45,879 nucleotides of DNA, taken from IMG/VR virus record IMGVR_UViG_2541047916_000008; one strand, given 5' to 3'. Numbering within the stretch: position 1 is the first letter of the stretch; every line of letters starts with the position of its first letter. The notes beneath the pieces were generated by a model that saw only the letters and a program-made list of their open reading frames with translations, was not told where the DNA came from and made no database searches. The stretch is from a virus (taxonomy: Duplodnaviria; Heunggongvirae; Uroviricota; Caudoviricetes). The position numbers and the translations under genes were made by a program. Shown here piece by piece: positions 1-45,503 of this stretch.

Positions 1-435
1 ATGCATCTAGAAGTCTCTATTAATCCAGAAACTAGAGCTGAATTTTTTGATGAAGTTTTTCTCAAATTCCCGGAGCTAGAGTCTTCTATCATTGATGATT
101 TCAAGAGATACAAAGCAACCGGTGAGCTTCCGCATTATTTCGGTAGGGACGTTGCGTATACTCAGCCTTATGGTGCTTTTCGGGCTGGGTTGATGCATAT
201 CCATCTTTGTCTACCGCCAAACAAGTTTCCCGAGAAACTTCCACAACCGGATAGGGTCTGCAAGAAAGGTGATCCTGATAATGATGCTTGTCTTGTGTAT
301 GTCCAAGGTGAGCTTTATGAGAATAAATATTCACTCATTGCTATTATGTATCCCGATGCACATGAAAAAGCAAGAAAACATGATGTGATGAGCTATCTGG
401 CGCGAATTGCCCAGAATTATAAAGATGAAAACTAA
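1..435 (+). CDS. YafO-family type II toxin (ribosome-dependent mRNA interferase family); start may be truncated by window edge
   Basis: Track ORF 1..435; motifs FGRD..Y, HIHL, LVYxQG, LIAI..P..H..AR match my recollection of E. coli YafO; cognate antitoxin would lie upstream, outside the window. Confidence 0.6.
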   Translation: MHLEVSINPETRAEFFDEVFLKFPELESSIIDDFKRYKATGELPHYFGRDVAYTQPYGAFRAGLMHIHLCLPPNKFPEKLPQPDRVCKKGDPDNDACLVYVQGELYENKYSLIAIMYPDAHEKARKHDVMSYLARIAQNYKDEN

Positions 436-461: not shown

Positions 462-761
462 TTAGTTATTTATTTTCCTATTTGTTCTTACCCTCTCCCA
501 TTCAATTCTGCCTTCTTCACGCCGTTTATCTATATATTCAGCAAGATCCTGAATGTTGATGCAGCGCTTTGCTTTCTGTGATGTACCAACACGATAAGTC
601 GGGATCGGCAACTGGCATGCATTTGCTTTCGCTTCTGCTGTGTTAGGGCTCATACCGAAATACTTTTGGCATACAGCTGACAGCTCAATGTTTGGGGTAT
701 TGAATTCAGCCATCAGTAAAAACAAGGTGTTCATAATTTTCTCCATCAAAACCGGCTGCAC
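462..761 (-). CDS. Small phage regulatory protein, PrtN-like (pyocin-activator family) DNA-binding protein; last gene of leftward early operon
   Basis: Track ORF; N-terminal MNTLFLLMAEF... and overall size recall PrtN-family proteins; assignment from memory only. Confidence 0.35.
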   Translation of the reverse strand: MQPVLMEKIMNTLFLLMAEFNTPNIELSAVCQKYFGMSPNTAEAKANACQLPIPTYRVGTSQKAKRCINIQDLAEYIDKRREEGRIEWERVRTNRKINN

Positions 762-32605: not shown

Positions 32606-33793
32606 ATGGGTAAAGGCAGCAGTAAGGGGCATACCCCGCGCGAAGCGAAGGACAACCTGAAGTCCACGCAGTTGCTGAGTGTGATCGATGCCATCAGCGA
32701 AGGGCCGGTTGAAGGTCCGGTGGATGGGTTAAAAAGCGTGCTGCTGAACAGTACGCCGGTGCTGGACAGTGAGGGGAATACCAATATCTCCGGTGTCACG
32801 GTGGTGTTCCGGGCAGGTGAGCAGGAGCAGACACCGCCGGAGGGGTTTGAATCCTCCGGCTCCGAGACGGTGCTGGGTACGGAAGTGAAATATGACACGC
32901 CGATCACCCGGACCATCACGTCGGCAAACATCGACCGTCTGCGCTTTACCTTCGGTGTACAGGCACTGGTGGAAACCACCTCAAAGGGAGACAGGAATCC
33001 GTCGGAAGTTCGCCTGCTGGTTCAGATACAGCGTAACGGTGGCTGGGTGACGGAAAAAGACATCACCATTAAGGGCAAAACCACCTCGCAGTATCTGGCC
33101 TCGGTGGTGGTGGATAACCTGCCTCCGCGCCCGTTCAATATCCGGATGCGCAGGATGACACCGGACAGCACCACAGACCAGCTGCAGAACAAAACGCTCT
33201 GGTCGTCATACACCGAAATCATCGATGTGAAACAGTGCTACCCGAACACGGCACTGGTCGGCGTGCAGGTGGATTCGGAGCAGTTCGGCAGCCAGCAGGT
33301 GAGCCGTAATTATCATCTGCGCGGGCGTATTCTGCAGGTGCCGTCGAATTATAACCCGCAGACGCGGCAATACAGCGGTATCTGGGACGGAACGTTAAAA
33401 CCAGCATACAGCAACAACATGGCCTGGTGTCTGTGGGATATGCTGACCCACCCGCGCTACGGCATGGGGAAACGTCTTGGTGCGGCGGATGTGGACAAAT
33501 GGGCGCTGTATGTCATCGGCCAGTACTGCGACCAGTCAGTGCCGGACGGCTTTGGCGGCACGGAGCCGCGCATCACCTGTAATGCGTACCTGACCACACA
33601 GCGCAAGGCGTGGGATGTGCTCAGTGATTTCTGCTCGGCGATGCGCTGTATGCCGGTATGGAACGGGCAGACGCTGACGTTCGTGCAGGACCGACAGTCG
33701 GATAAGGTGTGGACCTATAACCGCAGTAATGTGGTGATGCCGGATGATGGCGCGCCGTTCCGCTACAGCTTCAGCGCCCTGAAGGACCGCCTA
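32606..33793 (+). pseudogene. J: Tail tip/host-specificity gene J, N-terminal fragment (interrupted by IS insertion)
   Basis: Near-identical in recollection to lambda J residues 1 to about 395 (MGKGSSKGHTPREAKDNLK...FRYSFSALKDR), then reading frame leaves J after Arg codon 33788-33790. Confidence 0.8.
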
Positions 33794-33884
33794 TGAGACG
33801 ACAATAACTCAGTCCGCCTGGCGCCGATTATTCTGGCCGGTTTTGTAACCTGAGTGTCATTTACATGATCCAACAGGAAATGGC

Positions 33885-35384
33885 GTGACGCTCAATACTT
33901 CTCAGGTCAGTTACTATATGACTCAGCGTAAGAAAGGTATAACTCAGCATATCTCGGCCATGAAGGCTGGTATCTCAGTCCGTTCTGGTCGTCGGATCGA
34001 AAAAGGAGAGTGGGCAAAAAACAGTGTTCGGCACTGGCGCACACGCAAAGATCCTCTGGAAGCTGTGTGGGACAGCATGCTTGTTCCTCTGTTGAAAGAG
34101 AGGCCGGCTCTGACACCAACAACTCTGCTGGAGATGCTACAGGATAAATATCCCGGCCAGTACCCCAACAGCCTTCGAAGAACAATGCAACGGCGGGTCC
34201 GCGAATGGAAGCTACAGTATGGTGCAGAGCAGGAGGTCATGTTCCGCCAGCGACATCAGCCCGGTCTGCGAGGTCTGTCGGACTTTACTGAACTGAAAGG
34301 TGTAGTTGTCACCATCGCCGGTAAGTTGTTGGCGCATAAGTTGTATCACTTCCGTCTGGAATGGAGCCACTGGAGCTGGATGCGGGTTGTGCTGGGTGGT
34401 GAGAGCTTCTCTGCTCTGGCTGAAGGTCTGCAGGAAGCCCTCGGACAACTGGGCGGAGTGCCGGTAGAACATAAAACGGACAGCCTGAGGGCAGCATGGA
34501 AACAACAGGGCGAAGATGGACGCCGCGAGCTGACTGAGCGTTATGCTGCTCTCTGTCAGCACTACGGAATGCAGGGCGTACACAATAATGCCGGTCGGGG
34601 CCACGAAAATGGCTCGGTTGAAAGTGCCCACGGACATCTGAAAAGGCGTATCTGTCAGGCGCTGATACTGCGGGGCAGTAACGACTTCAGCACCATAGAA
34701 GAATATCAGGCCTTCATCACTCAGCAGGTTATGCGGCACAACCGTAACAATCAGGATCTGGTCAAGGAAGAACGTCTTCATCTGAAACCGCTGCCGCTTC
34801 GTCGCAGTGCTGACTATGATGAGCTGACTGTGAGGGTTAGCCGCAGCAGTACCATCAATGTGAAGCACGTCGTCTACAGCGTACCTTCCCGGCTTGTAGG
34901 TCAACTGTTACGGGTCCGGTTATGGGACGATCGTCTGAGCTGTTACGTTGGCAGCAGCGAGGTCATGAGCTGCCCACGTGTCAGACCAGAAAAAGGGAAG
35001 ACGCGGGCCCGTCGTATCGACTTCCGACATGTGATCGACAGTCTGGCAAAAAAGCCCGGTGCGTTCTGCCATGCAACGCTGAGAAATGACATCCTGCCAG
35101 ACGATGAATGGCGGAGGCTGTGGCGTCGCTTATGTAATCATCTGGAACCCGACATGGCAGGCAGGCTGATGGTACATGCTCTGAAACTGGCTGCAGGATA
35201 CGACGATATCTCAGTCGTGGCAAAAGGTATGGAGCAGATGCTGAATACCCCGGGAAACGTGGATCTGCACCGGCTGATGCGCTTCCTGGGTATAAAGGAA
35301 AAGGCGTTGCCGGTAGTCAATGTGAAACAGCATAACCTGAGCAGTTATGAGCAACTACTGCGTGGCAAGGGAGGTTCGCAGTGA
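33885..35384 (+). CDS. istA: IS21-family transposase IstA
   Basis: Track ORF, 499 aa, N-terminal HTH and DDE-type integrase core typical of IstA; GTGA overlap with istB. Confidence 0.75.
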   Translation: MTLNTSQVSYYMTQRKKGITQHISAMKAGISVRSGRRIEKGEWAKNSVRHWRTRKDPLEAVWDSMLVPLLKERPALTPTTLLEMLQDKYPGQYPNSLRRTMQRRVREWKLQYGAEQEVMFRQRHQPGLRGLSDFTELKGVVVTIAGKLLAHKLYHFRLEWSHWSWMRVVLGGESFSALAEGLQEALGQLGGVPVEHKTDSLRAAWKQQGEDGRRELTERYAALCQHYGMQGVHNNAGRGHENGSVESAHGHLKRRICQALILRGSNDFSTIEEYQAFITQQVMRHNRNNQDLVKEERLHLKPLPLRRSADYDELTVRVSRSSTINVKHVVYSVPSRLVGQLLRVRLWDDRLSCYVGSSEVMSCPRVRPEKGKTRARRIDFRHVIDSLAKKPGAFCHATLRNDILPDDEWRRLWRRLCNHLEPDMAGRLMVHALKLAAGYDDISVVAKGMEQMLNTPGNVDLHRLMRFLGIKEKALPVVNVKQHNLSSYEQLLRGKGGSQ

Positions 35385-36136
35385 GCAATATCCATCACCT
35401 TGAACGCAGCCTGCGTAAACTACGCCTGACACGAGTTGGAGCTGAATGGCACGCTCTGGAAAAACGAGCACTGGCAGAAGGCTGGACACCATCGCGCTAT
35501 CTTCTGACGCTATGCAATGAAGAACTCCTGTGGCGCGAGAGTGAAAAACTGCGTCGTTATAAAAAGGAGGCCCGGTTGCCAGTTGCCAAAACGCTAAGCG
35601 AATACGACTTCAGTCAGGTGCCGGAACTGAATGGAGCTCAGTTCCGGCAACTCTGTGAAACGACAGACTGGGTTGATGCAGGAGAAAACGTTCTGCTGTT
35701 CGGAGCCAGCGGGTTGGGGAAAAGCCATCTGGCGGCAGCGATCGTGGATGGCGTAGTAGGCCAGGGCTACCGGGCCCGGTTCTACAGCGCAGGAGAGTTG
35801 TTGCAGGAACTACGTAAAGCCAGAGCGCAGTTGAAACTGAATGAGCTGCTACTGAAACTGGATCGCTACCGGGTGATAGTGGTGGATGATCTTGGCTATG
35901 TCAAACGCGACAGCGCCGAAACGGGAGTACTGTTCGAGTTAATAGCGCATCGCTATGAACGTGGGAGCCTGGTGATAACCAGTAACCATCCGTTCAGCAT
36001 GTGGGGCAGCATCTTCGTGGATGAGACTATGGCGGTGGCGGCGGCAGACCGGCTGATCCATCACGGATATATGTTCGAACTGAAAGGTGAAAGCTACAGG
36101 AAAAAGACAGCGAAGGCAGTAACAAGCGCGACTTGA
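35381..36136 (+). CDS. istB: IS21-family helper ATPase IstB
   Basis: Track ORF, 251 aa; Walker A GASGLGKSH and Walker B VIVVDDLG. Confidence 0.8.
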   Translation: MSNIHHLERSLRKLRLTRVGAEWHALEKRALAEGWTPSRYLLTLCNEELLWRESEKLRRYKKEARLPVAKTLSEYDFSQVPELNGAQFRQLCETTDWVDAGENVLLFGASGLGKSHLAAAIVDGVVGQGYRARFYSAGELLQELRKARAQLKLNELLLKLDRYRVIVVDDLGYVKRDSAETGVLFELIAHRYERGSLVITSNHPFSMWGSIFVDETMAVAAADRLIHHGYMFELKGESYRKKTAKAVTSAT

Positions 36137-36203
36137 TGTCGCACTGAAGGGTGCGGCCAGTATAGTTGGCGCGAGTCGGCAAAACTAGTTGACGTCTAAT
36201 AAC

Positions 36204-38501
36204 CGCCATAATGCCGTTGAGGTGAACTGGATTGACCCGAACAACGGCTGGGAGACGGCGACAGAGCTTGTTGAAGATACGCAGGCCATTGCCCGTTACG
36301 GTCGTAATGTTACGAAGATGGATGCCTTTGGCTGTACCAGCCGGGGGCAGGCACACCGCGCCGGGCTGTGGCTGATTAAAACGGAGCTGCTGGAGACGCA
36401 GACCGTGGATTTCAGCGTCGGCGCAGAAGGGCTTCGCCATGTACCGGGCGATGTTATTGAAATCTGCGATGATGACTATGCCGGTATCAGCACCGGTGGT
36501 CGTGTGCTGGCGGTGAACAGCCAGACCCGGACGCTGACGCTCGACCGTGAAATCACGCTGCCATCCTCCGGTACCACGCTGATAAGCCTGGTTGACGGAA
36601 GTGGCAATCCGGTCAGCGTGGAGGTTCAGTCCGTCACCGACGGCGTGAAGGTAAAAGTGAGCCGTGTTCCTGAGGGTGTTGCTGAATACAGCGTATGGGG
36701 GCTGAAGCTGCCGACGCTGCGCCAGCGCCTGTTCCGCTGCGTGAGTATCCGTGAGAACGACGACGGCACGTATGCCATCACCGCCGTGCAGCATGTGCCG
36801 GAAAAAGAGGCCATCGTGGATAACGGGGCGCACTTTGACGGCGAACAGAGTGGCACGGTGAATGGTGTCACGCCGCCAGCGGTGCAGCACCTGACCGCAG
36901 AAGTCACTGCAGACAGCGGGGAATATCAGGTGCTGGCGCGATGGGACACACCGAAGGTGGTGAAGGGCGTGAGCTTCCTGCTTCGCCTGACCGTGGCAGC
37001 GGATGACGGCAGTGAGCGGCTGGTCAGCACGGCCCGGACGACGGAAACCACATACCGCTTCACGCAACTGGCGCTGGGAAACTACAGGCTGACAGTCCGG
37101 GCGGCAAATGCCTGGGGGCAGCAGGGCGATCCGGCATCGGTATCGTTCCGTATTGCCGCACCGGCAGCGCCGTCGCGGATTGAGCTGACGCCGGGCTATT
37201 TTCAGATAACCGCCACGCCCCATCTTGCCGTTTATGATCCGACGGTACAGTTTGAGTTCTGGTTCTCGGAAAAGCGGATTGCAGATATCAGGCAGGTTGA
37301 AACCACAGCACGCTATCTTGGCACGGCGCTGTACTGGATAGCCGCCAGTATCAATATCAAACCGGGCCATGATTATTATTTTTACATTCGCAGTGTGAAC
37401 ACCGTTGGCAAATCGGCATTTGTGGAGGCTGTTGGCCAGCCGAGTGATGATGCATCCGGCTATCTGGATTTTTTCAAAGGAGAGATAGGGAAAACCCATC
37501 TGGCTCAGGAGTTGTGGACGCAGATTGATAACGGTCAGCTTGCGCCTGACCTGGCTGAAATCAGGACGTCCATTACGGATGTCAGCAATGAAATCACGCA
37601 GACCGTCAATAAGAAACTGGAAGACCAGAGTGCAGCGATCCAGCAGATACAGAAGGTTCAGGTTGATACAAATAATAACCTGAACAGCATGTGGGCTGTG
37701 AAGCTGCAGCAGATGCAGGACGGACGCCTTTATATCGCGGGTATTGGTGCCGGTGTTGAGAATACCCCTGACGGTATGCAGAGTCAGGTGCTGCTGGCGG
37801 CGGACAGGATTGCGATGGTTAATCCTGCGAATGGCAACACAAAGCCGATGTTTGTTGGTCAGGGCGATCAGATATTTATGAATGAAGTGTTCCTGAAATA
37901 TCTGACGGCTCCCACCATTACCAGCGGCGGTAATCCTCCGGCATTTTCCCTGACACCGGACGGGCGGCTGACGGCGAAAAATGCCGATATCAGCGGTAAC
38001 GTGAATGCGAACTCCGGGACGCTCAACAACGTCACGATTAACGAGAACTGCCGGGTTCTGGGAAAACTGTCCGCGAACCAGATTGAAGGCGATCTCGTTA
38101 AAACAGTGGGCAAAGCTTTCCCCCGGGACTCCCGTGCACCGGAACGGTGGCCATCAGGGACCATTACCGTCAGGATTTATGACGATCAGCCGTTTGACCG
38201 GCAGATTGTTATTCCGGCGGTGGCATTCAGCGGCGCTAAACATGAGAGAGAGCATACTGATATTTACTCCTCATGCCGTCTGATAGTGCGGAAAAACGGT
38301 GCTGAAATTTATAACCGTACCGCGCTGGATAATACGCTGATTTACAGTGGCGTTATTGATATGCCTGCCGGTCACGGTCACATGACGCTGGAGTTTTCGG
38401 TGTCAGCATGGCTGGTAAATGACTGGTATCCCACAGCAAGTATCAGCGATTTGCTGGTTGTGGTGATGAAGAAAGCCACCGCAGGCATCAGTATCAGCTG
38501 A
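36204..38501 (+). pseudogene. J: Tail tip gene J, C-terminal fragment (resumes after IS)
   Basis: Track ORF 36189..38501; from codon at 36207 ([16 protein letters not shown]...) matches lambda J continuation; extreme C-terminus differs from lambda J (different receptor-binding region). Confidence 0.8.
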
Positions 38502-39168: not shown

Positions 39169-39194
39169 TTAGCCAGGTAACACAGTGTTATTAC

Positions 39195-39222
39195 AGCCCG
39201 CCGGTTCAGGCGGGCTTTTTTG
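39195..39222 (+). terminator. Terminator after lom
   Basis: agcccgcc-ggttcagg-cgggct hairpin followed by T6. Confidence 0.55.
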
Positions 39223-39232
39223 TGGAGTGGAT

Positions 39233-41590
39233 ATGGCAGCAGTAAAAATCTCAGGTGTGCTGAAAGATGGTGCGGGAAAACCAATACAGAACTGCACTAT
39301 TCAACTGAAGGCAAAGCGTAACAGCACCACGGTACTGGTGAACACGGTGGCCTCTGAAAATCCGGATGAAGCCGGGCGTTACAGCATGGATGTTGAGTAT
39401 GGCCAGTACAGCGTCACCCTGCTGGTTGAAGGTTTTCCGCCTTCACATGCCGGGACCATTACCGTCTATGAAGGCTCCAGACCCGGTACGCTGAATGATT
39501 TTCTCGGTGCCATGACGGAAGATGACGTCATGCCGGAGGCATTGCGTCGTTTTGAGGCAATGGTGGAAGAAGCGGCACGCAACGCCGAAGCCGCCTCTCA
39601 GAGCGCAGCGGCGGCAAAGAAATCCGAAACGGCTGCGGCATCATCGAAGAACGCGGCGAAAACCTCAGAAACGAATGCAGCTAACAGCGCACAGGCGGCA
39701 GCGGCCTCGCAGACTGCATCGGCAAACTCCGCGACAGCAGCCAAAAAATCAGAAACCAACGCGAAAAATAGCGAGACAGCCGCAAAGACGAGCGAAACCA
39801 ACGCAAAGTCCAGCCAGACGGCAGCGAAAACCAGCGAAACGAATGCCAAAGCCAGTGAAACTGCGGCGAAAAATAGCCAGAATGCAGCAGCCGAAAGCGA
39901 GAGTGCGGCAGCTGGTTCTGCGACTTCAGCAGCTGGATCAGCAACTGCTGCGGCTAACAGCCAGAAAGCAGCGAAGACGAGCGAAACTAACGCAAAGTCC
40001 AGCCAGACGGCAGCGAAGACCAGCGAAACGAATGCCAAAGCCAGCGAAACTGCGGCGAAAAACAGTCAGGATGCAGCAGCCCAAAGCGAGAGTGCTGCAG
40101 CTGGTTCTGCAACAGCTGCAGCTAATAGCCAAAAAGCTGCAAAAACCAGTGAAACTAACGCAAAGACGAGTGAAACAAAAGCAGCAGCCAGCGAGACAGA
40201 AGCAACGTCAGCCGCAACAAGAGCAGAGAATGCAGCCCGGATTGCAGAAGATGCCGCTGATCCTGCTTCTGTCCCTCCGCTTCCTGATATCTGGCTACCC
40301 TTGAATGATTCTCTGGAAGCGATAACAGGGTATGCCCCGGGCTATAAAACAATAACCATCGGCAGTGATGAAATAACAATGCCTGTTAATGGCATATGCC
40401 AATTTAGCCGGGCTTCATCTGCAACGTATATTGATAAGTCCGGGCATATTACCGTGGCAGGGAATAACGTTCCTCGTTTTGAAAAATATGGTTTGCTGAT
40501 AGAGAATCAGCGAACAAACATGTTCGTAAATAGTTTTAATCCTGATGCCTGGAATAAAAGCGGTGGTATATCTGTAACATCATCAACAGATGAATTTGAG
40601 TTTAAATATGGACGTTTCACGGTAGGAAGCGATATAGCAGGAACGACAACAGGGAGAAATATATGCACAGTTGCTGGTAACAAAGGCATAGATGTGACTG
40701 GCGATGATCAGTACAGTAAAGGTCCGTATGTTACCGCGTCATTCAGGGTAAGAAGTGATCTCAATGTTCGCGCACGTATCCGTTTTGAACGGTATAACTC
40801 GGAAGGATACACCTTCCTTTGCGACGCCTATTTGTCATTACAGACCCATGAACTACAAATTACTGGTGGCAATGCCCAGCTATTAACAGCAAACTTTGAA
40901 ATCGATCCTGGTAGTGGATGGATATACTTTCAGGCAACACTGAAATGTCTGCCAGAATGGGGAATGGTTGGTACGCAGCTGCAAATTGCAGCCGACAGAG
41001 CTGTGGGGTCTTTTGCAACAGGTGACTGGATAGAAGTAACCACCCCGCAATTCGAGTATGGTGCTTGTGCAACTTCCTTCATCATAACGACAACAGAGCC
41101 AGCGACTCGTGCATCAGATTTATGTAAATTTCCGCTGATGAAAAATATGTATACCATGCCTTTTACGTTCATGGTGGAAGTCCATAAAAACTGGTTTATT
41201 TCTCATAATGCTGCACCGCGTGTCATTGATTCAGAAAATCACCAGTCCGGAGGCCCATTTATTATGGGGTTTGGTTCTTCTGGAACTATTAGTCAGGACG
41301 GTTATTCGTATTGCGATATAGGCGGGGCTAACCGACGTGTATATGAATCATGCGGAGTAAGGGATCTCGTTATGGGATTCAGGGTTAAGGCTGACGGCAT
41401 GACATGCTCATTTGCAAATAAGCATATAAGCACTGAAACAAAAACAGTATGGAAATATATTCGTGAAGCAGCCGTGATTCGTATCGGGGGGCAAACGACG
41501 ACAGGATTACGACACCTTAATGGTCATATAAAAAACCTCCGTTTCTGGAACAGAGCATTGTCAGATACGCAGCTTAAGGAATACGTATAA
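39233..41590 (+). CDS. stf: Side tail fibre protein (Stf-like N-terminus, Ala/Ser/Thr-rich repeat region, C-terminal lectin-like domain)
   Basis: Track ORF 39185..41590 trimmed to MAAVKISGVLKDGAGKP (matches lambda Stf N-terminus); C-terminus ends with NLRFWNRALSDTQL, a LamG/ConA-like signature from memory. Confidence 0.75.
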   Translation: MAAVKISGVLKDGAGKPIQNCTIQLKAKRNSTTVLVNTVASENPDEAGRYSMDVEYGQYSVTLLVEGFPPSHAGTITVYEGSRPGTLNDFLGAMTEDDVMPEALRRFEAMVEEAARNAEAASQSAAAAKKSETAAASSKNAAKTSETNAANSAQAAAASQTASANSATAAKKSETNAKNSETAAKTSETNAKSSQTAAKTSETNAKASETAAKNSQNAAAESESAAAGSATSAAGSATAAANSQKAAKTSETNAKSSQTAAKTSETNAKASETAAKNSQDAAAQSESAAAGSATAAANSQKAAKTSETNAKTSETKAAASETEATSAATRAENAARIAEDAADPASVPPLPDIWLPLNDSLEAITGYAPGYKTITIGSDEITMPVNGICQFSRASSATYIDKSGHITVAGNNVPRFEKYGLLIENQRTNMFVNSFNPDAWNKSGGISVTSSTDEFEFKYGRFTVGSDIAGTTTGRNICTVAGNKGIDVTGDDQYSKGPYVTASFRVRSDLNVRARIRFERYNSEGYTFLCDAYLSLQTHELQITGGNAQLLTANFEIDPGSGWIYFQATLKCLPEWGMVGTQLQIAADRAVGSFATGDWIEVTTPQFEYGACATSFIITTTEPATRASDLCKFPLMKNMYTMPFTFMVEVHKNWFISHNAAPRVIDSENHQSGGPFIMGFGSSGTISQDGYSYCDIGGANRRVYESCGVRDLVMGFRVKADGMTCSFANKHISTETKTVWKYIREAAVIRIGGQTTTGLRHLNGHIKNLRFWNRALSDTQLKEYV
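39785..40145. repeat. Tandem duplication (about 170-190 bp units, roughly 90 percent identical) inside stf
   Basis: aagacgagcgaaac(c/t)aacgcaaagtccagccagacggcagcgaa(a/g)accagcgaaacgaatgccaaagccag... occurs twice in tandem (starts about 39785 and 39974); wider low-complexity zone 39590-40230. Confidence 0.7.
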
Positions 41591-42902: not shown

Positions 42903-42969
42903 TGGCTGGTTAACTTTCGATAGTGCGAGTATTGAATGATTTCCAGCCGTTACCGATTTTACGTGTTAA

Positions 42970-43218
42970 TTAGTGAACAAACCACTCGTCAGCAGACTCC
43001 CAGGTATCTTTCAGAGTTTCCTGAACAAAAGTTTTAGCTGAATCTTTATCGGCGGTGCGCGTAACAGAAAGGCCATCGTTGCTGGTGGCTTTTACGATCA
43101 CCTCTACATCGTCATAACGTTTACTGATGCGTCGGGTTAATTCTTCCTTTAACGCATCCACAGCACCGGTTGGCATTTTAGTCATTTTTTCTTTGGCTAT
43201 GCAGATTTCAATACGCAT
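42970..43218 (-). CDS. DinI-family DNA-damage-inducible protein
   Basis: Track ORF, 82 aa; MRIEI.IAK...P.GA.DAL..EL..RI......E.........LSV......D......[12 protein letters not shown] matches DinI. Confidence 0.7.
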
Positions 43219-43231
43219 AAAAGTCCCTCTA

Positions 43232-43279
43232 TACTGTGTTTGTATACAGTGTTATTTTTGACTGTATGGATAAACAGTG
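43232..43279. promoter_or_regulatory. Two tandem LexA (SOS) boxes upstream of dinI-like gene
   Basis: tACTGTgtttgtatACAGtg (43232-43251) and gACTGTatggataaACAGtg (43260-43279); both CTGT-N8-ACAG. Confidence 0.65.
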
Positions 43280-44377
43280 TCAAGAGGTCTTATTTCTGCT
43301 CTTTTGGAGCTCTTCAAAACGATTATGTAAAGATTTCGGATACAGTTCGGTATATACCTGCCATAGCACGTTTAATGAACGATGCCCTGTAACTTGGGCG
43401 ACTTCCTCAATACTAAAACCAGCCTCAAATAAGCGACTTGCCCCTTCTCTACGCAAATCATGGTATCGCAGATCTTTAATACCTAATTTGCTTCTTACCC
43501 TCTGAAATCCCGCAGTAACAGAAGTGCTGTTATATGGAAAAATGAATTCCGATTTTTGGGGCTGTCGTTGGACGATATCCCAGGCTTCCCCAAGCAAGGC
43601 TACTTTCATGTGGTTGCCTTCCTTTTTGCGTGGATCTTTCCTGTCTCTTACGAGTATAGATTTTTGTTCCTGGTCGAGATCTTCCCATCGTAACCGGCAT
43701 ACTTCTCCGATTCGCATACAGGACCACACAGAAAATTTGAGGATATCAACGAACGGAATTTTTGAGCATTTATGTGTAGATCGTTGTTGAAGACCTTCAA
43801 TGAGCATGTCCAGTTCATCAGATGCCGGTCTACGATTACGACGGTTTGATTTACCAATCAAACCAAGTTTAAGTAGATATGGACGAGCACTTTTCGCCGG
43901 GTTTGATGTGTAATTAATTCCGTATACAGGTTTGGCCGCATCCAGAACACTGCCAAGATAACTAACATCGTGGCTGACTGTTGCTGGACCTGCACCAGCG
44001 TTGTTTCTTAGCCTACAATGTTCAATTACGTCATTTTCTGTCAGTTCGGATAGTTTGATCGCGGAGATGTCACTATCCATAAGCAGTTCCAGCACATATC
44101 TTTTAGTACGACCTGCTTTACCTCCGGCATTTGGGTCATTTAAATATTTGTGTAGTAAGTCACGGACTGTAAGTCCGTCAACTGCATTTGATGATGGAAT
44201 GCCATATAGATCTAATTCCATCACTTTCTGTGTACCCCATGTTTTGGCATGGGCATGTTTAGGGAATGTTTTGCTTTCCCTGTAAGTGATAACACCTTTT
44301 TCTTTGATAATCACATTACAGCGATAGCGTGGTGTGCCATCGGATTTTAGTCGTTTCTCTATGTTATAGTACGCCAT
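43280..44377 (-). CDS. Tyrosine recombinase (phage integrase), divergent from dusA
   Basis: Track ORF, 365 aa; C-terminal R...HDLR...Y catalytic pattern (RYHDLRREGASR ... LWQVYTELY); AT-rich. Confidence 0.8.
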   Translation of the reverse strand: MAYYNIEKRLKSDGTPRYRCNVIIKEKGVITYRESKTFPKHAHAKTWGTQKVMELDLYGIPSSNAVDGLTVRDLLHKYLNDPNAGGKAGRTKRYVLELLMDSDISAIKLSELTENDVIEHCRLRNNAGAGPATVSHDVSYLGSVLDAAKPVYGINYTSNPAKSARPYLLKLGLIGKSNRRNRRPASDELDMLIEGLQQRSTHKCSKIPFVDILKFSVWSCMRIGEVCRLRWEDLDQEQKSILVRDRKDPRKKEGNHMKVALLGEAWDIVQRQPQKSEFIFPYNSTSVTAGFQRVRSKLGIKDLRYHDLRREGASRLFEAGFSIEEVAQVTGHRSLNVLWQVYTELYPKSLHNRFEELQKSRNKTS

Positions 44378-44395
44378 TACACGACCTCGTTATTT

Positions 44396-44432
44396 CGGGT
44401 TCCCATAAATCGTGGGAACCTGTGCGGGAACC
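44396..44432. promoter_or_regulatory. GGGAACC repeat cluster (one inverted pair plus one direct copy) between integrase and dusA; candidate integrase/att-associated or promoter element
   Basis: ggttccca-taaatcg-tgggaacc palindrome (44398-44420) then cgggaacc (44425-44432). Confidence 0.35.
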
Positions 44433-44465
44433 TAACGCGAGAAAAATAGCCTGAAATGTTCAAAA

Positions 44466-45503
44466 ATGCACGATAATCCTGAAACACAGAAAACTAATCA
44501 AACCAGCGCGATGCCTGAGAAAACTGGCGCTTACGGGAGTTCTCGGTTTAGCATTGCTCCTATGCTTGACTGGACGGACAGACATTGCCGTTATTTCCTG
44601 CGTCTGCTTTCCCGCAATACGTTGCTGTATACCGAAATGGTGACCACAGGGGCGATTATTCACGGTAAAGGTGATTACCTGGCGTACAGTGAAGAAGAAC
44701 ATCCGGTAGCGTTGCAACTCGGGGGTAGCGATCCGGCGGCGCTGGCACAGTGTGCGAAGCTGGCAGAAGCGCGCGGATATGATGAGATCAACCTGAATGT
44801 CGGCTGCCCGTCTGACCGGGTGCAGAACGGCATGTTTGGTGCGTGTCTGATGGGTAATGCGCAGCTGGTTGCCGACTGCGTGAAAGCGATGCGCGATGTG
44901 GTGTCGATTCCGGTGACGGTGAAAACGCGTATTGGCATCGATGATCAGGACAGCTATGAATTTCTCTGCGATTTCATCAACACCGTTTCCGGCAAAGGTG
45001 AGTGTGAGATGTTCATCATCCACGCACGTAAAGCCTGGCTTTCTGGGTTAAGTCCGAAAGAAAACCGTGAGATCCCGCCGCTCGATTATCCGCGTGTGTA
45101 TCAACTGAAGCGTGACTTTCCGCATCTGACGATGTCGATTAACGGTGGTATCAAGTCGCTGGAAGAAGCTAAAGCGCATTTGCAACATATGGATGGCGTG
45201 ATGGTCGGGCGCGAGGCGTATCAGAATCCGGGGATTCTGGCGGCGGTAGACCGAGAGATTTTTGGTTCCTCGGATACCGATGCCGATCCGGTGGCGGTAG
45301 TGCGCGCCATGTATCCGTACATTGAGCGTGAACTCAGCCAGGGTACGTATCTCGGCCATATTACCCGGCATATGCTGGGCTTGTTCCAGGGTATTCCTGG
45401 CGCGCGGCAGTGGCGGCGTTATTTAAGTGAAAATGCCCATAAAGCGGGTGCAGACATTAATGTGCTGGAACACGCGCTCAAACTGGTGGCGGATAAGCGT
45501 TAA
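44466..45503 (+). CDS. dusA: tRNA-dihydrouridine synthase A
   Basis: Track ORF, 345 aa; DusA-type TIM-barrel flavoenzyme sequence (NLNVGCPS, catalytic Cys, FMN-binding motifs); followed by pspG as in E. coli. Confidence 0.9.

Follow-up and report, generated by a model that had tools for sequence, protein, structure and literature searches.

Organisation of the int-dusA locus

The DNA analysed, a stretch of 45,879 bp referred to below as the window, carries near its right end an integrase gene (int) and the tRNA-modification gene dusA, transcribed divergently. The positions of these genes and of the associated features are given in Table 1. As proposed in the initial annotation, the ORF coordinates place the two starts 88 bp apart, a distance that holds if dusA starts at its first in-frame ATG (44466); with the second ATG (M16, 44511), the gap would be 133 bp.

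Table 1. Features of the prophage and of its right junction in dusA
Feature	Position	Strand	Remarks
PrtN-family gene, candidate RDF (rdfN)	462..734	-	Opposite prophage end; Pfam PF11112 PyocinActivator, E 3.3e-24
IS21-family element (IstA + IstB)	~33797-36188		Interrupts gpJ
DinI-like gene, last cargo gene before int	42970..43218	-	Pfam DinI, E 1.1e-19; same order in mEp460
Integrase ORF (int)	43280..44377	-	365 aa; Pfam Phage_integrase PF00589, E 7.5e-21, residues 189-346
int-dusA spacer, outer P arm of attP, phage-borne	44378..44465	.	88 bp; contiguous in free phage mEp460
Heptamer GGGAACC, inverted, offset -164	44398..44404	-	Candidate arm-type Int site
Heptamer GGGAACC, offset -148	44414..44420	+	Candidate arm-type Int site
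Heptamer GGGAACC, offset -136	44426..44432	+	Candidate arm-type Int site
dusA ORF	44466..45503	+	345 aa; Pfam Dus, E 7.7e-105, residues 30-340
Phage-derived replacement dusA 5' end, codons 1-32	44466..44561	+	In mEp460 virion DNA; absent from strain 1439 attB
attR core ATGCTTGA	44562..44569	.	dusA codons M33-L34-D35; crossover region
Host-derived rest of dusA	44570..45503	+	From 44553 on, ~98.6% identity to dusA of prophage-free E. coli

The spacer, which lies upstream of int, must carry the replacement promoter of dusA. A standard promoter and terminator scan of positions 43100-44700 gave no sigma-70 promoter match inside the spacer. A relaxed scan returned weak candidates only, which were not relied on: TTGATT-N17-GATTAT on the minus strand (44501-44473) and GAGAAA-N17-AAAAAT on the plus strand (44439-44467). 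The positions of the int and dusA promoters are presumed ones.

As a whole, the element has the gene order of a lambdoid prophage: attL, a hypothetical gene, a YafO toxin, PrtN, exonuclease, repressor/cro, Q and lysis genes, followed by terminase, head, tail, J, lom, tail fibres, DinI, int and attR. Its DinI-int-attP module shares 95-99.9% DNA identity with those of mEp460, PhiR40_1, PhiR55_1, phiSTEC1575-Stx2k, SKA5, Lys8385Vzw and 1720a-02, the free phage mEp460 being 98% identical and the Stx2d phage 1720a-02 95% identical. As for the PrtN-family gene, its homologue in mEp460 is annotated as an excisionase.

The window copy has undamaged int and rdfN genes, attR core and heptamers. The IS21-family insertion in its gpJ is absent from the near-identical prophage of E. 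coli CU39ES-1. Judged from its sequence, this copy is probably still able to excise. It is probably unable to form infectious particles, because gpJ is split by the inserted element.

The crossover lies inside dusA

Four types of attachment site were compared. The window itself provided attR, and the free phage mEp460 provided attP. As attL falls beyond the window, the near-identical prophages of E. coli E138 and CU39ES-1 were used for the left junction. The empty site of E. coli strain 1439, with zur, 155 bp and a 331-aa dusA, served as attB. The only block identical in all four sites is ATGCT(T/C)GA, which reads ATGCTTGA in the window vs. ATGCTCGA in mEp460. To the left of this core, attR has phage sequence and attL host sequence, and to its right the situation is reversed. 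The suggestion that the prophage is integrated at the 5' region of dusA is thus supported by the comparison of attP, attR, attL and attB, which puts the crossover inside the gene.

The core falls just outside the coordinates given in the initial annotation. The sequence 44380-44520, of which a direct repeat had been expected at the other prophage end, is not repeated there as such; what the two ends share is only the core within about 24 semi-conserved bp. This stretch common to attR and attL is ATTGCyCCkATGCTTGAywGGAyG, with 19 of the 24 positions alike and the 8-bp core identical. In mEp460, the attP core is centred on a perfect dyad, TCCTAT-GCTCG-ATAGGA, and a weaker dyad, CCAAT-GCTCG-ACTGG, is found in attB.

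When aligned with prophage-free dusA, the loci do not share sequence left of the core: the empty site of strain 1439 is identical to the window only from ATGCTTGA rightwards. At the phage level, mEp460 virion DNA holds the equivalent of window positions 42960-44566 uninterrupted and then continues with TAGGATGTACCGTTTTTGAAAAAC..., exactly as at the lysogen attL. Because the free phage carries 42960-44566 in one piece, the spacer and dusA codons 1-32 are phage DNA. This segment, 44378-44561, amounts to 184 bp (the 88-bp spacer plus 32 codons), and the earlier idea that the first dusA codons could be phage-derived proved correct, the number of such codons being 17 if M16 is the real start. Concerning annotation, the prophage boundary is to be set within the core, and annotated dusA codons 1-32 are to be assigned to the phage.

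By the coordinates of locus L003, the attL of the window prophage is situated about 760 bp left of position 1, where the predicted order would be the dusA 5' remnant, ATGCTTGA, TAGGATGTACC... and GGGAGCC-TATT-GGGAACC. The dusA part of the window is matched by 5426 of the 5426 complete E. coli genomes, and the integrase side is also matched by 742 of them. The module is therefore present in about 14% of these genomes, and Stx-converting phages are among its carriers.

The integrase belongs to the dusA-associated integrases

Integrases found next to dusA were defined as dusA-associated integrases (DAIs) by Farrugia et al. 2015, with mEp460, BcepIL02, BcepMigl, DC1, AH2 and H66 as phage members (PMC4482086). 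E. coli is over-represented among them, prophages account for about half of the members known, a PrtN homologue is present in 60 of 94 islands, and the DAIs were placed nearest to Rci (PMC4482086). The window integrase shares 98.6% identity with the mEp460 enzyme and 100% with that of PhiR40_1; with the integrases of BcepIL02, BcepMigl, DC1, AH2 and H66, identity is 34-36% across no less than 93% of the window protein. This comparison covered the six phages named in PMC4482086.

The RHRH tetrad and the tyrosine nucleophile are present, R222, H306, R309, H332 and Y342 being invariant or nearly so among 52 homologues. The other DAI traits were also found: int lies divergently beside the 5' end of dusA, the dusA ORF is intact with a full Dus domain, semi-conserved att repeats occur at the element ends (the published repeat being ~21 bp), and a PrtN/RdfN-type RDF stands across attP, a trait that is frequent, not universal, in DAIs. 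The window integrase is hence a DAI. Its match to all six named phages bears out the assignment of this prophage to the class that supplies a replacement dusA 5' end.

The AlphaFold model of the integrase (mean pLDDT 86) has three domains: three strands and a helix at the N-terminus (residues 1-58, pLDDT ~90), a helical core-binding domain and the catalytic domain. In a structure search, the model matched the Tn1549, lambda, Xer and Cre recombinases. Full-length lambda Int (1z1g_A) aligned over all 365 columns and the truncated 75-356 chains over about 290. With the isolated N-terminal domain (pLDDT 88), fold searches gave non-specific matches only, and neither Pfam nor NCBIfam detected a domain there. 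The PDB sequence search and NCBIfam returned only generic Xer-type/integrase matches below family cut-offs.

Relation to known dusA elements and other phages

The system to which the window element belongs is already known, and the main finding adds nothing new to it: the locus is a further example of a phage module that has been described well before. Phage 1720a-02 uses a 7-base core inside a 21-bp motif to insert itself about 100 bp into dusA, carries a 184-bp phage 'dusA-prime' segment, and shows Int-dependent excision and attP formation, as established by sequencing and int deletion (Balasubramanian et al. 2019, PMC6328086). The 184 bp of 'dusA-prime' correspond to the 184 bp of window positions 44378-44561. 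The mEp460 group as a whole has the same lambdoid order, with PrtN and exonuclease at one end and tail fibre, DinI and int at the other, and integrases at 98.6-100% identity. The window copy differs from it by the IS21-family insertion in gpJ and by its left-end cargo, a YafO-family toxin.

Compared with the DAI family at large, the window element has the same divergent integrase, replaced dusA 5' end, att repeats, RHRH/Y residues and PrtN homologue, and nothing essential differs. In this family, the replaced 5' end supplies strand beta-1 of the Dus barrel (PMC4482086). In a Vibrio dusA element, the part of the RDF was shown to be played by a PrtN homologue (Durand et al. 2021, PMC8409611). 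IMEVchUSA3 and the other Vibrio dusA islands (PMC8409611) share the target and the int / attP / rdfN arrangement, although these islands are IncC-mobilisable with rdfN under AcaCD control, whereas the window element is a lambdoid prophage with rdfN in the leftward early region.

More distant parallels exist outside the DAIs. Phage 21 and e14 integrate at icd. As in these elements and in SXT, located at prfC (cited in PMC8409611), the insertion lies in a coding gene and a surrogate end keeps the gene functional; however, the icd phages replace the 3' end and the window element the 5' end, and both targets and integrase families differ.

A heptamer array with fixed offsets

The motif GGGAACC occurs exactly three times in the window, all inside 44398-44432. 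The initial annotation had reported a GGGAACC palindrome plus a direct copy in the spacer: the three copies are there, but the motif itself is no palindrome. The arrangement consists of an inverted pair, GGTTCCC, 9 nt and GGGAACC, with the direct copy 5 nt further. Together with two heptamers on the P' side, the attP of this phage type thus possesses five repeated sites, on both arms and distinct from the core sequence. Equivalent arrays were found in other DAI phages (Table 2).

Table 2. Heptamers on the two attP arms, with offsets counted from the first base of the core (inv, inverted) and Int identity given relative to the window integrase
Element	Int identity	Heptamer	P arm	P' arm
mEp460/window	98.6-100%	GGGARCC	-164 (inv), -148, -136	+51, +62
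Yersinia YeP1	68%	GGGGTGC	-163 (inv), -148, -136	+50, +61
Morganella IME1369_02	68%	GGTGTCC	-162 (inv), -148, -136	+50 (GGGGTGC), +61
Pseudoalteromonas C5a	54%	GGGTGAC	-148, -137	+92 (inv)
Marinobacter AS1	36%	GGAGCAC	-189 (inv), -167 (inv), -148, -137	+71, +82

The -148 offset is the same to the base in mEp460, YeP1, IME1369_02, C5a and AS1, whose heptamers all differ in sequence. A heptamer at -136 or -137 is present in all five lineages. Four of them also have an inverted one between -162 and -167, none being found on the P arm of the C5a attP examined. The DNA between the sites has diverged while layout and offsets recur. At loci for which only attR was available, the three copies change together: GCACCCC / GGGGTGC / GGGGTGC in L005, GTACACC / GGTGTCC / GGTGTAC in L037, and GGTyCCC / GGGAGCC / GGGAACC in L070 and L074. 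In L007, with an integrase 99.4% identical, matching changes are seen on both sides of the inverted pair (GGGTCCCC / GGGGACC). A scan of viral contigs was uninformative on such covariation, all but one of its 80 loci being 98-100% identical, and in the second E. coli DAI type (CAVP773) attL, hence the P' arm, is destroyed by an IS5-family insertion.

A fixed geometry combined with a lineage-specific heptamer sequence points to arm-type integrase sites, and on this comparison of sequences the heptamers are likely to be such sites, to which, we infer, the N-terminal domain of Int binds. Lambda Int has its arm sites (P1, P2 and P'1-P'3) on both attP arms. The likeness would extend to the short repeats at fixed distances from the core and, in the model, to the extra N-terminal sheet-plus-helix domain, a possible counterpart of lambda Int residues 1-64. 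The window integrase nevertheless belongs to another family (~17% identity), its attP is upstream of int, between int and the RDF, instead of downstream as in lambda, and its target, unlike that of lambda, is a protein-coding 5' end rebuilt by the phage. The main texts of the dusA literature searched make no mention of the five-heptamer array.

The most serious alternative, which we regard as unlikely, is that the heptamers bind something other than the N-terminal domain of Int, namely the PrtN-type RDF, a host bending protein, or a regulator for which they form an int/dusA operator. The P-arm heptamers are indeed 20-55 bp upstream of the int start codon, in the only room for the replacement dusA promoter; the fold search with the N-terminal domain was non-specific; and Int and RDF are co-inherited, so that covariation with the integrase type cannot tell the two proteins apart. 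Yet sites on both attP arms follow the pattern of the lambda Int arm sites, and an offset fixed to the base at -148 ties them to recombination geometry and not to promoter positions. A host factor, moreover, would keep one specificity per host, whereas elements of E. coli use GGGAACC (window) or GGGGTGC (L005).

It is far less probable still that the cluster is a chance or neutral repeat without function. The total of three GGGAACC copies falls below the 5.45 expected from shuffling and shows no excess over chance, but all three fall within 35 bp, for which the chance is ~3 x (35/45879)^2 = ~2e-6 (an estimate assuming random placement); two more related heptamers occur on the other attP arm, and the layout recurs at the same offsets with other heptamers at integrase identities down to 36%.

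The region is read, with a probability of about 0.9, as the attR end of a lambdoid prophage of the mEp460 type with a DAI integrase, the GGGAACC repeats being most likely arm-type Int sites.

A model for integration and excision

In the proposed mechanism, the circular phage carries beside int a 184-bp surrogate of the dusA start, made of the 88-bp upstream region and 32 codons. Dus codons 33-35 of the host gene present the same sequence as the phage core, ATGCT(C/T)GA; Int would recombine the two, and integration would fuse the host dusA body in frame to the phage promoter and N-terminus, leaving the original 5' end at attL. Of the five putative arm-type sites, three would be on the P arm and two on the P' arm, the latter ending up at attL once the phage is integrated; the heptamers would be read by the beta3-alpha domain at the Int N-terminus to build the recombination complex. 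Excision is predicted to require both Int and the PrtN-family RDF from the other prophage end. That it would yield a circle and restore wild-type dusA, as in other DAI elements, is supported indirectly by free phage genomes with the predicted attP and by the Int-dependent excision of 1720a-02. The heptamers may also give Int a feedback on its own expression, because they sit between int and the likely int promoter region. If confirmed, the five-site attP architecture would aid DAI-based integration vectors and the prediction of element boundaries.

Short and long dusA starts in the Enterobacteriaceae

DusA N-termini were compared among 80 Enterobacteriaceae species. A short form, M[SPL][SP]E.Q..[FY]PA[HY]RFSIAPMLD, is the common one; E. 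albertii, Citrobacter, Enterobacter and Klebsiella have it, as does E. coli strain 1439. Beside a DAI integrase, in the window and in loci L003, L005, L007, L037, L070 and L074, the N-terminus takes the long form MH.N.E....Q.S..PE......RFS[IV]APMLD, which adjoins a decayed int in L066. It also exists without a detectable integrase gene in E. coli of the K-12 type, in two Kosakonia species and in Silvania. The first ATG (M1) is kept in all long forms; M16, which aligns with the native short start, is absent in L005. Among the 5426 complete E. coli genomes, 1123 dusA 5' ends are of the short native form and 4303 of the K-12 type, which together account for all of them.

K-12-type loci match the window only from position 44463, with ~80-90% identity. 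They retain about 25 nt resembling the first int codons and have a decayed spacer without heptamers. On these sequence features, the K-12-type dusA start is best read as the fossil attR of an old DAI element, because of the int 5' remnant, the decayed, heptamer-free spacer and a 5' coding part 80-85% identical to that of living elements. The zur-dusA region of these loci (yjbL/yjbM, DUF2713) may be leftover cargo. Such a fossil is not mentioned in the literature searched. The reverse direction, in which the phage would have copied a K-12-type host 5' end, was rejected: the outgroup genera have the short form, and K-12 retains the int 5' remnant.

That the dusA 5' end of the window is native and att lies elsewhere, e.g. 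left of int, which the initial annotation had named as the outcome against its own reading, has a practically negligible probability: the similar 345-aa DusA of prophage-free K-12-type genomes, matching from their 5' end, is all that speaks for it, and it is refuted by the free phage genomes, which contain the window-type 5' end, by the empty site of strain 1439, which diverges exactly at the core, by the second, different dusA 5' remnant that lysogens retain at attL, by the short N-terminus of seventy-odd other Enterobacteriaceae, and by the K-12-type locus itself, whose int remnant marks it as a probable fossil attR.

The probable fossil origin of the K-12 dusA 5' end and the conserved five-site attP architecture are the additions made here, modest and testable. 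The combined proposal, in which DAI integrases, described until now as Rci-like recombinases with a 21-bp att repeat, are heterobivalent like those of lambda and Tn916, with five arm sites at fixed offsets and co-evolving heptamers, and the dusA start of K-12 and of ~79% of E. coli is a domesticated fossil attR, is given somewhat better than an even chance. DusA of K-12 is an active enzyme, so a phage-type N-terminus is compatible with function. If the K-12 start is a phage scar, the meaning of 'native' changes in comparisons of dusA expression or N-terminus before and after insertion, and the 'identical length, 61% identity' noted in PMC8409611 would be explained. The DusA of biochemical work would, in that case, already have a phage-derived N-terminus.

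Dispersal and age of dusA occupation

In K-12-type E. coli, both the 5' end of dusA and the long N-terminus of DusA appear to be a fossil attR left by an old element with a dusA-associated integrase (DAI); farther upstream, this locus still retains some 25 nt from the start of int. The dusA 5' ends of living elements are 80-85% identical to that of K-12. As a whole, 4303 of the 5426 complete E. coli genomes carry the K-12-type 5' end, the remaining 1123 having the short native form, and a short DusA N-terminus is found in about 70 further Enterobacteriaceae species.

The dusA of E. coli CAVP773 is occupied by a second type of DAI, which shows 69.5% identity and has GGGGTGC as its heptamer. The element is a 9.5-kb remnant full of IS elements, in a K-12-type background, and its attL is interrupted by an IS5-family element located in what remains of the old K-12-type 5' end. 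This lineage has therefore seen more than one occupation of dusA.

Features of the window and of the compared loci (offsets from the first base of the core)
Feature	Location	Remarks
YafO-family toxin gene and 179-aa hypothetical gene upstream of it	window 1-435; L003 (related E. coli prophage locus) 1605-2595	
IS21-family element	window 33797-36188	contains IstA and IstB
IstA	window 33885..35384	in IS21-family element
IstB	window 35381..36136	in IS21-family element
Side tail-fibre ORF	window 39185-41590	801 aa; 'AAKTSETNAKSS'-type repeats
K-12-type empty dusA locus, E. coli	L001 2480-2607	homologous to window 44350-44569
GGCAATTCAA, three tandem copies	L170 (Pseudoalteromonas phage C5a attP) 1939-1968	offsets -113 to -91

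dusA starts and attP repeats

Two in-frame start candidates for dusA are present at window 44466-44511, neither of them preceded by an obvious Shine-Dalgarno sequence. The first ATG, inside AAAATGCAC, is kept in all phage-type 5' ends, while the second (M16), aligned with the native start, is absent from the L005 (CAVP773) and YeP1 types.

Concerning C5a, the repeat triplet sits on the core side of the arm heptamers, before the core, and its copies could be sites for a recombination directionality factor (RDF) or a bending protein; no counterpart of these tandem repeats was found in enterobacterial attP sites.

Cargo, boundaries and gene disruptions

The YafO-family toxin and 179-aa hypothetical genes, placed from attL to the candidate RDF gene rdfN, are cargo lying directly on the P' arm, where mEp460 has other genes in place of this pair. 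The window probably corresponds to a predicted provirus, with a left boundary about 760 bp inside attL and a right boundary 1.3 kb into host dusA and pspG.

The tail-tip gene J is cut in two by the IS21-family element (window 32606..33796 and 36189..38501), whereas gpJ is intact in the related prophage of strain CU39ES-1; particle formation is probably defective in the window copy. As for the side tail-fibre ORF, its near-tandem repeats are long and rich in alanine. Since the CU39ES-1 homologue is annotated as two partial pseudogenes, this region differs among copies.
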